From positions 200,756,001 to 200,820,000 of the forward strand of contig OX597814.1 in NCBI GenBank assembly GCA_951406725.2: a DNA stretch of 64,000 nt. Reading direction: 5' to 3'. Positions 6,396 through 63,174 of the stretch are shown in pieces (positions within the stretch are counted from its first letter, which is position 1; every line of letters starts with the position of its first letter). The DNA comes from Octopus vulgaris. Its lineage: Eukaryota. Made by a program: the position numbers and the translations under genes. The notes beneath the pieces were generated by a model, which made no database searches, was not told where the DNA came from, and saw nothing but the letters and a program-made list of their open reading frames with translations.

Positions 6396-6614
6396 AAGAC
6401 TGCTGGAAAAAAAGCAAATAAATAGAATAGAATAAAATGAACGTGAATAAATAGGGGATACTGATAATGCAGGTACCATACACATTCCTACACACACCAA
6501 ATATTGACATACACAGGGATATACGTATGTGCAAATAAAGACACATACAGCAGGAACACAAAATGGCAGCTCATTAGGACAGAGAGACACAAAAAAGAAA
6601 GAAAAAGCAAAAGA

Positions 6615-6654
6615 CCACTGATGAGGTCACAGTAGTGTGACGAAAGAACTCTAA
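6615..6654 (+). ncRNA. Minimal type-I hammerhead ribozyme motif (C3:G8, extra G, helix I decayed)
   Basis: CTGATGA(6618-6624)-G-GTCACA-GTAG-TGTGAC-GAAA-GAAC-TC. Helix II is a perfect 6 bp. Helix I is only partly paired (CCA/TAA). Confidence 0.7.
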
Positions 6655-7044
6655 AATATAATTAATATGAAATAAAGCTGAACCAAGTGAGCACCGAATA
6701 AATAGTGTGTGTGTTTTCATTGGCTAAACTGGCAACATGACCATCCCCAAATAGCAATATCTGTCTCAACACATGAGTTCACATCAAGAATCTTGCAAAA
6801 TGATTACATAAACATATATATATGATGTTATATATATATATATCTCATCATCATCATTATCGTTTTATGTCCGCTTTCCATGCTGGCATGGGTTGGACTG
6901 TTTGACAGAGGACTGGTGAGCCAGACTCTGCACCAGGCTCCAATCTGATCTGCCAGAGTTTCTGCAGCTGGATGCCCTTCCTAACACCAACCACTCCGAG
7001 AGTGTAGTGGGTGCTTTTATGTGCCACTGGCATGAGGACCAATT

Positions 7045-7308
7045 AGACAGTTACAATCAATGAAACATACAAGTGGCTGGGCATTCCACAGACACATGTA
7101 CCCTTAATGTAGTTCTCAGGGAGATTCAGCATGACACAGAGTGTGTCAAGGCTAGCCCCTTTGAAATACAAGTACAACTCATTTTTGCCAGCTGAGTTAG
7201 ACTGGAGCAATGTGAAATAAAGTGTCTTGCTCAAGGACACAGCACGTCGCCAGGGATTGAACTCACGATTATGAGACAAATGCCCAAACCACTAAGCCAT
7301 GTGCCTTC
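7045..7308 (-). mobile_element. tRNA-derived SINE (family D)
   Basis: Reverse complement of the 10697-11020 copy (GAAGGCACATGGCTTAGTGG...GTGTCCTTGAGCAAGACACTT). Confidence 0.75.
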
Positions 7309-8390
7309 ATATATATATATATATATATATATATATATATATATATATATGCATGAGTGTGTGAGAGACAAAGAAAGAAAGAAAAAGGGAAAGAAAAACA
7401 ACAAAAGAAAAAGGAGAAAAAGCAAGTGATTGAAAGAAAAATAAATGTAGATATCCTGTTATGTATGGTGAGAGAACCACACATATGAACTTATATCATT
7501 TCTAAACTTGGCAAAGTATAAAACATCTACTTTTATATTGATTAGTAAAGTAGAAATTATTCTAGAAACAGAATTGTGTAGAAGCAATATTTCTCATCCA
7601 CTTTATAAGGTCAGCATCTGAGGTTAAAATACTTTGATTTGCTTTTTGCTTTGGTTAACTTTTGAAGGTAGAAATATATTTTATCTCTACCTGATAACAC
7701 TTAACATATTACACTAAAACAGGTTTTCCTATATTATTGTATTCTTTAAATTGTCTAGTAATATGATTTCCTCTTGCACTTAGTGTCTTATCATCATTGT
7801 TGTCATCATCATCACCACCACCATCATCATAATCATCATCATTTTACATTTGCTTCTCATGCCAGCATGGGTTGAATGGATCATCAATTTTTTAAATGAA
7901 AGTCACTGCTCCCAAAGACTGGTGCCCATAGTTGTTATTTGGCTTCATTTTTACAGTCGGATGCCTTTCTTATTCCCAACCATTTTACAGAGTGCACTGG
8001 GTGCATTTTTCTATGGGACCCACACCAGAGAGGTTGAATAGTCCTTGGTGAGAGACATATATAATGGGACATCACAGTTCCATGCTTTCTTTGCTCATTT
8101 GCCAACCACTTGCTGGCACCAGCACTAGACAGGTTCTCTTGTCCACCAATCACTCAAGTGCAGTGGTTCTTAGCTGGCGTCCCTATGACCCATAGGGGCC
8201 CATATAAAAATTTGGTGGGGTTCCATGCAAGCAAAATTATAAATTAGGGCTCCACATTATTTTTAGGCATCAAGATGTATTTATTGCATGAAACAACCAG
8301 GCTCCTTTCTCTAACACTTTACACTGTTCAACAAAATTTCTGGCCACTGAAACATGTTCTCCCAGAAAGTGTTATTTCACAGAACTCTGA

Positions 8391-8975
8391 ATGGAAACAG
8401 TGAATAATATAACCCAAACCCTCTGTTCTCACTATGCCAAACCTATGGCCTCCAAATACCTGATCCACCAGAACTCAGCTATTGCGGACAATGCCAAATT
8501 CAATATATTGATGGCAGACCTCATCAGAGTAATGAGAAATGTGTCCCACATGTGCAACCCTACAGAGTTAAAGAGACACATAGAACACTTCATCCACCAC
8601 ATGCAGTTGTCCGGATACAGCCATAGGGAAAGGATCAGAGTATATAAAGGAGCCATGACGGAATTTGAAACTATCATATATAAGGATAGGAGTGGGATTT
8701 GTCCACTCTGGAATACTTTATATATATGGAATACCAGTGAAAGGACTAAGAAGAAAATAGGGAAGGCCAACTCTTGGTATGGTAGCCACAAATACCAGAG
8801 TATCATGTTTGTCAACACCACCACTAGAGGCAAACTGGTGTGCTGCTTTAGAAGGGCTCCAGACAAGCTTAAGCTGAAAAGTAAGGTTGTAGAAAGGCCA
8901 GGTAACCCTATAAAATCCCTAATCAGTAGAACCTACCCGTTTAATAGAACCCCCTGTACTGATAGGAACTGGTGA
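8391..8975 (+). pseudogene. Penelope-like element ORF fragment (RT thumb/C-terminal region and linker)
   Basis: 194-aa ORF with YAKPMASKYLIHQNSA...KFNIL..DLIRVMRNVS...MQLSGYS...KVVERPG..IKSLI...YPF...C. This matches the PLE pattern Y.KP.....H..S....K..I....R..RN.S....SGY followed by a Cys linker. Confidence 0.75.
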
Positions 8976-60325: not shown

Positions 60326-61069
60326 TAGTATTCCTTATTATTATTTGCAAAACTTTACTCTTACTTATAATAAGAAAGAAAAACTATAGAATATAGAATT
60401 AAGAAGCTCCAGTATTTTTCTCTCTCCATGGAGTTCTAAATCATATTTCTTTTGTCTGTGTCACTCTATTTGTTAAATTCTTACATTCTTACAACCAAAA
60501 CAACATTTTAATGTCTTCAATACAATTTTTCACAATGCTGAGAACACCCGCCAGCTGAGAACCATTTGTTGTATATAATTTTAGCTTATCCACGAAGAGG
60601 AGGTGACAGACAAACTCTGTCCTCATGTAATACTTTAAAACTACTTATTCTCTAAGCCAAAGGGTAACTCGAAAGAAACAAAAGAGAGACTAAAAGTACA
60701 GTCAAGTTGAAATATTCAAGGTGATAGTTAAGTGAGACTATGGTATTGTTAAAGACTGCAAGAATTATCTGGCAATTCTTTTTTTGTTGTTTTAAGAATC
60801 TCATTCATACTACGTCATCAATTTTTTTAAACTTCAGGACTTTGATGAATCAATCATAAAGTTCTCTTTGTTACAAATTTAAATATATGATGAGTTGTTC
60901 TTCCATAATTTTCTCGTCACCCAACACTTCTCCGTTAATAAGGAACTAGCCAATTGTTCTGCAGGACATGAGCATGCAGTTTCCATTCTCTAGCTCAGTG
61001 GTTCTCAACTGGGGTCCATGTAAGATTTTCTTGTTAAAATTTATCTGTAATTAATTATTTTTTAAAATT

Positions 61070-61822
61070 CTTTTACTTATTTCAGTCATTTGGCTGTGGC
61101 CATGCTGGAACAATGTTTTAGTTGAACAAATCGACCACTGGACTTATTCTTTGTAAGCCTAGTACTTATTCTATTGGTCTCTTTTGCTGAACCGCTAAGT
61201 TACAGGGACAGGAACACACTAGCATCGGTTGTCATTCAATATTCAATAGGCGTAGTGTGTATGACAAACACACACACAAACACACACAAACAAACACACA
61301 CACACACACACGCACACACACACACACACACATATATGATGGCCTTCTTTCAGTTTCTGTCTACCAAACCCAGAACCATGTGGTTGGTAGGCAAGCTACT
61401 TACCACACAGCCACTTCTTTGCTATAATCTTTTACTCTTTTACTCCTTTTTTTCTCTTTATTTGTTTCAGTCATTTGATTGTGGCCATGCTGGAGCACCA
61501 CCTTTAGTCGAACAAATGGACCCCAGGACTCATTCTTATTAAGCCTAGTACTCATACAATTGGTCTCTTCTGCCAAACTGCTAAGTTACGGGGTCGTAAA
61601 CACACCAGCATCGGTCATCAAGTGAAGTTGGGGGAATACACACACACACACATATATATATACAACAGGCTTCTTTCAGTTTCCTTCTACCAAATCCACT
61701 CACAAGGCTTTGGTCGGCCTGAGGCTATAGTAGAAGACACTTGCCCAAGGTGCCATGCAGTGGGACTGAACCCAGAACCATGTGGTTGGGGAGCAAGCTA
61801 CTTTCCACACAGCTGCTCCTGC
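61070..61822 (-). mobile_element. Two tandem CORE-like SINEs (family A)
   Basis: Copies at 61070-61420 (internally deleted) and 61430-61822. Confidence 0.85.
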
Positions 61823-62216
61823 AATTGGCAAGACATTTTAACAATGTTGTATACAGTTCCTAATAATATTTAATTACAAGAATTTAAAATGAATTTTTTA
61901 AACATCATATGGTTAGGAGGGTCCATTCAAGTACAACGGGAATAAAAAAAAAAGATGTTTGCAAAAAACTGATCTGAGTTAATTATTAGTATGGAAAATA
62001 TCATTACTTTGGTTACTGCTTTTAGGCAAGATGTTTTAATCAGGGACAGAGTTTATTGTTGTTGTTTTTCTATGTGTGAGGTATTTATTTTACAAATGTC
62101 TCATTTTTGTAAGGACAGTGTGAAACTGGTGGTTGATTTGACTGAAAATGGCTAAATACAATCTCAGAATCTACATAGACATTTTGGAATTAATTTGGAA
62201 TTATTCAAAATAATTT

Positions 62217-62478
62217 TGTTGTGTCTGGGGAGAGTCATTCTCTTTTAGTGCCTTATTATTTAACACACTCACCAGTACAATTTCCACTTATCTCCTTTAT
62301 TTTTCTAAAATTTTTGTTGCGTCTTGCAACCTTTTCAATAGTCTTGAGAAACTACTGAAAAGGTTGCAAGACACAATGAAAATTTTAGAAAATAAAAATA
62401 AGAAATAAGTGGAAATTTTACTGGTGAGTGTGTTAAATAATAAGGCATTAAAAGGAATGACTCTCCCCAGACACAACA
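62217..62478. mobile_element. Head-to-head inverted pLTR-like element with two hammerhead motifs (U3:A8 variant)
   Basis: Inverted arms of about 125 bp. Minus 62305-62341: CTA-TTGAAAA-G-GTTGC-AAGAC-GCAAC-AAA-A-AT-T-T-TAG. Plus 62352-62388: CTA-CTGAAAA-G-GTTGC-AAGAC-ACAAT-GAA-A-AT-T-T-TAG. Confidence 0.8.
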
Positions 62479-63174
62479 GATTATGCTTCAACACACAAAC
62501 TCATATAAAGAATCTTGCAAACCAAATCCAAAAACGAAACAAAATAATTTTGCTTTTATTAAATTTCTTGCTAAGGCAGTGAGCTGGCAGAGTCATTACT
62601 GTGCTGGAAAAATTGCTTGGTGGTATTTCTTCTAACTTTATATTCTGAGTTCAAATGCAGTAGGAGTTGACTTTGTCTTTCATTCTTTCAGGATTGATGA
62701 AAGAAGTACCACTTGATCATTAGGGTCGATGTAAGCAACTATTGCCCTCCTACCAAGTTGCAGGCCTTGAACCTATAATAGAAAGGATTATTATTATTAT
62801 TATTGGCAGAGTCATTAGCACATTGGGAAAAATGCTTAGCAGCACCTTCCCCTACAATGGTTGGCCTTGTACCAAAATTTGAAACCATTATTAATTTTCT
62901 TGCTCAGACTGATACCACTTGAAGAACCATCATTGTCTTTTTCTGATGCTCTTGGAGTGAACAGAGATGATGCCATCAGTATATCAATAAAAGTTGGCAA
63001 ACTGAGCAAAATCATAAGAGCATCAGGGAAAATGCTTAGCAGCGTTTGTTTTGGCTTTTTATATTTTGTATCGGAATTGTGCTGAGATTAACTTTACCAT
63101 TCATCCTTTCAGAATTGATAAGAATTGATAAGAAAGTACCAGTGAAGTACTGGGAATGATGTAATTGACTAATA

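Follow-up and report, generated by a model that had tools for sequence, protein, structure and literature searches.

Type I hammerhead motifs at pseudo-LTRs of Penelope-like elements in Octopus vulgaris and a probably capped, uncut template in one family

Results

The 64,000-nucleotide stretch of Octopus vulgaris DNA analysed here (the window) contains about ten families of hammerhead-bearing elements with four intact copies, at a density above chance (Table 1). A preliminary description had counted about a dozen type I hammerheads. Each of the 14 coordinates of that description, in which minus-strand positions denote the low ends of the motifs, holds a hammerhead-like motif or what is left of a decayed one, but only four motifs pass a relaxed hammerhead descriptor (cores 25134+, 35586−, 25597− and 9559−). 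Applied to 20 block-wise dinucleotide shuffles, the same descriptor passed 0.45 motifs on average (range 0-3), showing that the motifs are real and exceed chance. A strict descriptor found one motif in the window and none in the 20 shuffles. Comparison with Rfam yielded 137 matches at E≤1 in the window, all of them hairpins and microsatellites, and no hammerhead model was among them. The palindromic helix III, the inverted arrangements and the TA-tract flanks described for the motifs were all seen by eye.

Table 1. Hammerhead-bearing elements and associated features of the window. PLE, Penelope-like element; pLTR, pseudo-LTR; ORF, open reading frame.
Feature	Position	Strand	Remarks
Family G, 5′-truncated 3′ end of a coding PLE	6408..6838 (extent approximate)	+	
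Family G hammerhead	6613-6651	+	canonical core; helix I 3′ strand deleted in window copy
PLE ORF fragment, decayed, pre-endonuclease region	8391..8975	+	not joined to the 9517 motif
Family C pLTR-only copy, 200 nt	9376..9575	−	
Family C hammerhead, intact	9517-9566	−	G3:C8 core, 6-nt palindromic helix III
Older sister of family B, inverted arm	21212..21601	−	damaged hammerhead 21380-21417
Family A, decayed copy	24510..24701	+	motif 24576-24610
Family D copy	25054..25345 (extent approximate)	+	canonical hammerhead 25129-25187, 10-nt palindromic helix III
Family B	25328..25998	−	non-coding 358-nt unit repeated head to tail (1.2 copies), plus inverted arms
Family B hammerhead	25559-25603	−	U3·G8 core, 8-nt palindromic helix III
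Family H, old low-copy hammerhead-like remnant	31810..31850	+	helix I broken in window copy
Family A2, decayed copy	34860..35010 (extent approximate)	+	motif 34907-34942
Family A copy	35467..35650	−	intact minimal hammerhead 35556-35590
Family I copy	35663..35834 (extent approximate)	−	hammerhead 35735-35781
Family E copy, inverted 5′ arm	49086..49290	+	motifs 49162-49199 (+), 49101-49138 (−)
Family F pLTR-only copy, inverted 5′ arm	62217..62545 (3′ end approximate)	+	
Family F motifs	62352-62388, 62305-62341	+, −	family core U3:A8, decayed in window copy

Most of the other sites hold decayed copies for which the family consensus is predicted to have the fold. It was recovered at the consensus level from genome-wide copies for 6618, 24576/35556, 35735, 62305/62352 and 34907. 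The family consensuses comprise the 3:8 pair, helices I and II and the palindromic helix III, with weak support for family E at 49101/49162 (helix II) and for family H at 31814 (three copies; just two other matches). Across families the 3:8 pair is C:G, G:C, U:A and in one case U·G, and the proposed covariation of the catalytic cores is thus real. A6U, A9C, U4C or U3·G8 cores occur in amplified families. For instance, in family A2 most relatives have a U at core position 6, a young G-like element has the A9C core, and both motifs of family E match their own consensus with a U4C core, which together with helix III is common to a coding PLE. The intact hammerhead of family A has an extra base after A9 and a 4-nt palindromic helix III, and the consensus of family I contains U10.1-U11.1 and an 8-nt palindromic helix III.

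Longer copies of families C, F and G extend into a same-strand GIY-YIG-type ORF, so that what the window holds of them are coding elements reduced by truncation or to the pLTR alone. Judged from their sequences, the families at 6618 (G), 9517 (C) and 62352 (F) are the 3′ ends (pLTRs) of protein-coding PLEs, and the previously proposed link to this class is borne out. Of 30 family F loci picked by their ORF, 23 had a same-strand pLTR match downstream of the ORF end, including the query locus (1), one tandem cluster (5) and one locus without the ribozyme part. Its ORF matched GIY-YIG above the Pfam cut-off (E 1.8e-07), and a match to RVT_1 in an F ORF lay below the cut-off, the RT domain being weakly matched. 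ORF linkage was seen in 5/30 pattern-picked loci of family C, with the ORF stop 947-1090 nt upstream in four regions, and in 4/15 loci of family G. The C protein shares about 50% identity with those of F and G, and a 1163-aa G-like ORF gave no Pfam match. The ORF fragment at 8391..8975 shares 72% identity with residues 846-1039 of the protein of a young G-like element. In the coding families C, F and G and in two more, the hammerhead lies in the pLTR on the coding strand. Typical features of PLEs were a pair of fixed 3′ ends separated by about 45-60 nt, 5′ truncation, inverted 5′ arms and AT-rich targets (F and E and the TA flanks by eye). In family C, the long 3′ end lies at 9376 and the short one, known from the family, near 9435.

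The elements had also been described as a radiation of non-autonomous families. This does not hold for at least C, F and G, which have coding parents, but it fits the family at 25559. A non-autonomous nature of family C was rejected because its long copies run into a PLE ORF, and a retrozyme-type head-to-tail unit was not found in C, F and G, whose 5′ end is fixed or truncated and whose parent carries an ORF. No ORF partner was found for family A in about 6.7 kb upstream of each of five loci, for D at four loci, or for E, H and B in the flanks searched; family I had an ORF remnant of 30% identity in one of four loci. Two other active PLE proteins tried as partners proved not to be parents of A, B, D, E or I; both have ribozymes of their own. 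Family B occurred downstream of one such active PLE at 2/30 loci (one by construction), which we read as shared TA targets. PLE ORFs beside a C copy (locus L058) and a B copy (L008) were neighbours, not parents.

Family B is the only one with the hallmark of non-LTR retrozymes, a short non-coding head-to-tail unit with one type I hammerhead each, and by its sequence represents a retrozyme-type non-coding unit. Unit copies span about 25345-25782, and inverted arms reach to 25998. In the first 100 of the 224 matches, direct repeats spaced 336-374 nt apart were seen at eight places. The 3′ ends lie at cut+176 and cut+218-225, the 5′ ends are scattered, and the predicted circular fold had a z-score of −4.6 relative to 60 shuffles.

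In family C, copies accumulate at a single start that lies 20 nt ahead of the ribozyme core, and they do not wrap round to the 3′ end. This start is a C-A step upstream of helix I. It is preceded in long copies by a TATA-like run about 30 nt upstream (by eye) and also resembles a 3′ splice site. Among 800 exact matches, the base before the start was G in 332, A or T in 100 and the parental C in 368 (by subtraction). The G is not present in the parent element. None of 47 copies with G continued into the parental upstream sequence, as compared to 16 of 23 copies with the parental C. The extra G was found in three loop II variants, each of which also exists among long copies, and in 40 copies it was preceded by A (19), T (14), C (5) or G (2). 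In eight of the 40 it could derive from the inverted arm. A shared first exon before the extra G was sought in these 40 copies and not found. In family F, four of nine copies (among 30) that start at the matching site appeared by eye to have an extra G, a weak indication; in family A, none of 30 copies had one despite a 5′ pile-up. The extra G at the start of family C is likely a copied mRNA cap, and the short copies likely derive from capped transcripts.

Copies of family C keep the ribozyme whole. Among 3,854 copies, 42 were without the normal base 17, and a 5′-end peak at the predicted cut site was not found: the true starts there were estimated at about 29 versus 12, 26 and 26 at neighbouring positions, by a rough junction pattern rule with visible miscalls both ways that is blind to starts preceded by T. 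The lack of an excess indicates that the templates were uncut. Thus, cut RNA is not copied in family C, whereas absent cut-site starts do not show absent cutting. This suggests that cutting is not needed for spreading in the family counted genome-wide, and a role of dimer cleavage in spreading, implied by the preliminary description, is unsupported in the one family tested. Uncut templates agree with a 2024 in vitro PLE study (PMC11167929).

Discussion

The role of the hammerhead in PLEs is discussed as an open question in two reports (PMC8557442, PMC11167929). Thousands of young genomic copies provide an in vivo record of the template. In family C, it started 5′ of the ribozyme and had not been cut. 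We consider it probable (roughly 0.7) that the motifs represent type I hammerheads belonging to the pLTRs of several PLE families plus one retrozyme-type unit, and that the short copies are reverse transcripts of uncut RNA made by PLE enzymes, the RNA in family C likely being capped and starting about 20 nt before the core. The PLE endonuclease would nick AT-rich DNA and the reverse transcriptase would start at two internal sites, both by analogy with the system described in PMC11167929. The 5′ pile-up of family C would mark the start site of a pLTR promoter and the extra G a copied cap. For family B, a PLE protein acting in trans might copy multimeric or circular RNA. The ribozymes may cut slowly, as dimers or with the help of proteins, and cutting would take place outside the copying step.

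An earlier reading took all short elements for independent non-autonomous retrozymes that spread via self-cut, circularised monomers. Family B with its head-to-tail 358-nt unit, canonical-type fold and scattered 5′ ends is in line with this, as are the lack of an ORF partner for A, D, E and H and the compensation of helices and palindromes between sister families. As the sequences of C, F and G continue into coding PLEs and the C copies have a fixed start, no 3′ wrap-round and no cut-site peak, we regard it as very unlikely. Even less probable is that splicing accounts for the fixed start of family C, the copies then stemming from a spliced RNA whose very short first exon ends in G-A-G, similar to the Penelope intron that ends just before helix I. 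The 3′ end of the D. virilis Penelope intron maps to helix I (PMC4209133, PMC2377424), and in long C copies a word resembling a branch point and a pyrimidine run are found, with an A-G right at the site. However, no sequence before the G is shared among 40 copies, which limits the first exon to three bases at most, and 100 copies have A or T instead of G. Moreover, a spliced RNA would be uncut all the same.

Random 5′ truncation of coding PLEs is a better competitor, if still an unlikely one. Here, the reverse transcriptase would stop at structured RNA and so produce the pile-up, the G would stem from terminal transferase activity or microhomology, and the ribozyme would cut in vivo, with the cut RNA being lost. 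The scattered 5′ ends of G, I and D copies, the readability of 8/40 G bases from the inverted arm and the G-less pile-up of family A speak for such a process. Against it, G makes up 332 of 432 non-parental bases at one family C site and is rare before other start positions (5/42, 6/73 and 8/55 among the starts listed), and that site is located at a C-A step upstream of helix I, about 30 nt downstream of the TATA-like run.

Building on the reading of uncut, capped templates, we tentatively propose, at less than even odds, that pLTRs give rise to short capped transcripts which the PLE enzyme copies over their full length, with the cap, into SINE-like mini-elements. The hammerhead 20 nt behind the cap would be kept for its fold or dimer contact, in RNP assembly and two-armed insertion, more than for cutting. 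Hence, active and abundant families might keep helices, palindromes and the 3:8 pair and yet carry A6U, A9C, U4C, U3·G8 or the natural G3:C8 swap. With such naturally occurring core alleles in amplified elements, the question of cutting versus structure is open to direct testing.

Systems of this kind are known, and the literature already describes minimal cores, the U3:A8 variant, a palindromic helix III and inverted pairs. U3:A8, the extra base after A9 and the palindromic helix III are described in a 2014 paper (PMC4209133), and U4C and U10.1-U11.1 were described in or before 2011 (PMC3088659). The present analysis adds, for family C (G3:C8), the one-site 5′ pile-up, the extra G and the lack of a cut-site excess. 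A narrow literature search did not find a cap-derived G described in PLE copies, and a weak search with one spelling did not find 'hammerhead' together with 'G3C8'. The main text of a 2026 octopus repeat annotation has no mention of hammerhead or ribozyme; supplements to published work may list these cores or families.

The octopus motifs resemble the minimal type I hammerheads of metazoan PLE pLTRs, as the accessible text presents them (Cervera and de la Pena 2014, PMC4209133), in their short helix I, the extra base between 9 and 10.1, the palindromic helix III, the U3:A8 variant, the many families per genome, the predominance of single motifs from truncated PLEs and the opposite-strand pairs 100-700 bp apart. 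Beyond what is described there, octopus also has G3:C8, A6U, A9C, U4C and U3·G8 in amplified families, and the 5′ ends of one family were counted genome-wide. Similarities to the Anolis Poseidon PLE, PAc (Frangieh et al. 2024, PMC11167929) include two RT start sites giving the tail, AT-rich targets, unprocessed RNA as the dominant template and the lack of RNA ends at the cut site. PAc was studied in vitro as one element, whereas the octopus template is deduced from thousands of genomic copies. A C3G/G8C change of the PAc hammerhead is reported to be partly active; in octopus the G3:C8 swap is natural, the tail measures 45-60 nt and the ORF start is not inside the ribozyme.

C, F and G are not retrozymes. 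Family B shares the non-coding head-to-tail unit of about 350 nt, the type I hammerhead and the self-paired predicted fold with metazoan non-LTR retrozymes, for which mobilisation by PLEs has been proposed (Cervera and de la Pena 2020, PMC7229834; Li, Clavereau and Pollet 2026, bioRxiv 10.64898/2026.07.22.740005). It differs from them in the U3·G8 and G10.1·U11.1 wobbles of its amplified form and in its PLE-type tails and inverted arms. Finally, full-length L1 insertions also have an extra, untemplated 5′ G at a pyrimidine-purine start, interpreted as a reverse-transcribed cap (PMC9341517). Unlike in L1, the octopus G sits on pLTR-only PLE copies of about 200 nt that have no poly(A), with the uncut ribozyme 20 nt downstream.

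Hammerhead motifs and their cores

The preliminary description had placed hammerhead motifs at a series of sites across the window, and inspection of the sequence revealed a hammerhead-like motif, or its remains, at every one of them, in a background of 38% G+C with abundant microsatellites and repeats. A strict descriptor found one motif in the window versus none in 20 block-wise dinucleotide shuffles, and a relaxed one, which allows any 3:8 pair, U4C and an extra base after A9, found four versus a shuffle mean of 0.45 (maximum 3), a density not matched by block-wise shuffled sequence. 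An Rfam comparison of the window contained no hammerhead match among its 137 rows. Nine window stretches were searched against the genome (2.8 Gb, 227 contigs). Eight proved multi-copy, with between 131 and 3,610 candidates at first look, 40 of which were scored per stretch; the element at 31814 has three genome matches, itself included. As had been proposed, helix III is palindromic or near-palindromic (4 to 10 nt) in the family majority sequences, which also contain helix I, helix II and the core; each was built on its family's best copies (3 to 30), a sample nearest to the window copies and biased towards them.

Sites and neighbouring features (window coordinates unless a stored locus is named; motif positions were counted by hand; letters are our family labels)
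Position	Strand	Feature	Remark
3566-3991		ORF fragment	presumably resembles a C-terminal LINE ORF part; no useful Pfam match
6618	+	hammerhead	family G
~6760-6820		~58-nt tail	family G
9376-9435		~58-nt tail	family C
9517	-	hammerhead	family C
15472-15855		ORF fragment	presumably resembles a C-terminal LINE ORF part; no useful Pfam match
24576	+	hammerhead	family A
25054-25998		adjoining elements	D adjoins B
25129	+	hammerhead	family D
25559	-	hammerhead	family B
31814	+	hammerhead	family H
34907-34942	+	hammerhead	family A2, abundant and A-like
35467-35834	one strand	I copy and A copy	head to tail, 180 nt apart
35556	-	hammerhead	family A
35735	-	hammerhead	family I
36772-37167		Tc1/mariner transposase fragment	Pfam PF01498
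49101/49162	-/+	hammerheads	family E
57777-57901		long near-perfect hairpin	adjoins TA tracts; possibly an inverted-arm insertion of an additional small element
58106-58206		long near-perfect hairpin	adjoins TA tracts; possibly an inverted-arm insertion of an additional small element
62305/62352	-/+	hammerheads	family F
~62485-62545		~58-nt tail	family F
L127:3-1220	-	406-aa open frame	adjoins a family F copy; ~eight imperfect repeats of ~26 residues, which we take to be BRC-repeat-like

Five families (A, D, E, G and I) have a C:G pair at 3:8. Family C has G:C there and family F has U:A; in family B, 99 of the first 100 matches listed, of 224, show U.G. Family E carries U4C and family I U10.1-U11.1. 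A sister of B with a canonical core differs from it by double substitutions in both helix I and helix III, which preserve pairing and palindrome (two motifs). Among 30 distinct motifs of the 34907 type, gathered from 545 stored loci, 24 have U at position 6; the other six comprise five family A motifs and one decayed window copy. This U6 is shared by subfamilies whose position 7 varies. One relative of family G (L229-L232; G000 C1, C6, C2, C3) is a very young coding Penelope-like element (PLE) that occurs in inverted pairs and has open frames as long as 1163 aa; its core is A9C in all six ORF-linked copies listed. Two more highly active coding PLE families (L444-L472, L474-L502) possess many near-identical ORFs, of ~780 and ~720 aa, and their own hammerheads. 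Read by eye in three loci each, one of these two has a U3:A8 core and the other a U4C core, and helix III of the U4C one is identical to that of family E.

The claim of varied cores stands insofar as several altered cores occur in amplified families, but U3:A8, the extra base, U4C and U10.1-U11.1 had already been published. The available text of Cervera and de la Pena 2014 (PMC4209133) covers minimal PLE hammerheads, U3:A8, the extra base, palindromes and opposite-strand pairs, and that of Perreault et al. 2011 (PMC3088659) covers U3:A8, A6C, U4C and U10.1-U11.1. C3G/G8C is described in the accessible part of PMC11167929 as a made mutant with partial activity; a narrow, weak literature search turned up no natural occurrence.

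Coding parents and insertion anatomy

In family G, a GIY-YIG-type ORF on the same strand ends 258-370 nt before the query in 4 of 15 loci, and some G-related copies contain open frames of 940-1163 aa. The ORF of one F locus matches Pfam GIY-YIG above the cut-off. Among 30 loci picked by the F ORF protein (one being the query locus and five belonging to a single tandem cluster), 23 have a same-strand pseudo-LTR (pLTR) downstream, three an inverted upstream copy only and four none. For C, a 24-nt pattern was used to select 30 loci, and five of them have a related same-strand ORF upstream; in four retrieved regions this ORF ends 947-1090 nt ahead of the start site. Because of this same-strand ORF linkage in each, C, F and G are, on sequence evidence, pLTRs of coding PLEs. 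The ~58-nt tails of the three families appear homologous by eye, and the cores beside them differ (G:C in C, U:A in F, C:G in G).

Fifteen of 30 family A copies extend upstream into a common non-coding stretch, and no ORF was found within ~6.7 kb (five loci). D likewise yielded no ORF partner in four loci, and none was seen for E in the sequence examined; I has a same-strand ORF remnant, 30% identical, in one of four loci. Three longer E copies (L084, L087, L099) contain ~130 nt more upstream sequence with a CCAAT-like word. Two of these copies begin at the identical place, so a second defined 5′ end is possible for E.

The 3′ ends of the copies fall at two fixed positions separated by 45-60 nt. 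At their 5′ ends they carry an inverted arm, which mostly stops at the short 3′ end, and their flanks are TA tracts or short duplications, all of this scored by eye except in B. The inverted arrangements and TA tracts noted in the preliminary description are therefore borne out. Such two-ended tails, inverted arms and flanks are a PLE signature according to the text available of PMC8557442, and the portion consulted of PMC11167929 explains PLE ends in vitro by two internal reverse transcriptase (RT) start sites and AT-rich nicking.

5′ ends of family C

Nearly all of 30 C loci, selected solely on sequence downstream of the ribozyme, retain the whole core, and their start lies at most ~20 nt upstream of it. 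By eye, this start site is a C-A step ~30 nt past a TATA-like run. The 24-nt pattern beginning there has 800 exact genome matches, preceded by G in 332, by A or T in 100 and, by subtraction, by the parental C in 368. Continuation into parental upstream sequence was seen in 0 of 47 G copies (40 of them fetched for having G, from the first 100 listed) versus 16 of 23 C-base copies. At L1 starts of this kind, an untemplated G has been interpreted as a copied cap (PMC9341517, available text), and by analogy we infer the same for the extra G of family C.

Other origins of this G have to be weighed. The start site bears a likeness to a 3′ splice site; as the base upstream of the extra G is mixed (A19 T14 C5 G2, n=40), no shared exon precedes it. 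The G could be derived from the inverted arm in 8 of 40 C copies. Descent from a single G-bearing master is disfavoured, because the extra G is spread over three loop II variants, all of which long copies have as well. The generality of a copied cap is weakened by the other families: nine of 30 F copies begin at the matching A, four of these with G (by eye), and ~10 of 30 A copies begin at an initiator-like A, none with an extra G.

Starts at the predicted cut were assessed on 3,854 exact C matches beginning directly past it. The normal base 17 is absent in 42 of them, and the same measure gave 73, 55 and 82 at neighbouring positions. Rough removal of point mutants, based on 30, 25, 25 and 25 loci by a rule that misjudges some rows in both directions, left an estimated 29 true starts at the cut versus 12, 26 and 26 beside it, an estimate blind to starts preceded by T. 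Across the 3,854 copies there is thus no 5′-end peak at the predicted cut relative to the three neighbouring positions, with no more than ~1-2% of copies beginning at it. The missing peak is no proof that cutting never takes place. One C copy without ribozyme (L367) has parental upstream sequence joined almost directly to the cut site, a junction that short T runs in common could explain.

Comparison with known elements

A scheme compatible with these patterns would have the pLTR promoter drive the transcript and RT copy its cap into the extra G, with RT initiating at two sites on AT-rich nicks. Ribozyme cutting would be slow or protein-assisted, and B and the families without a demonstrated partner would be mobilised in trans. 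These data add, for family C only, a genome-wide account of templates that were uncut and likely capped, together with a set of naturally altered cores carried by amplified families; some of these cores or families may already be on record.

The proposal of non-autonomous PLE or retrozyme-like families holds for B but not for C, F and G, the pLTRs of coding PLEs. B has a 358-nt unit, and copies cross the unit junction; same-strand matches lie 336-374 nt apart at eight places among the first 100 matches listed. Its 3′ ends fall at cut+176 and +218-225, and its 5′ ends are scattered (the longest plus-strand lengths, which may contain inverted arms, were left out). The predicted circular fold has -103.6 kcal/mol (z -4.6, 60 shuffles). 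Head-to-tail unit and predicted fold fit the non-LTR retrozymes described in the available parts of PMC7229834 and bioRxiv 10.64898/2026.07.22.740005. Taken as a whole, the hammerhead-bearing elements are a system of an already known kind, dense in the O. vulgaris genome.
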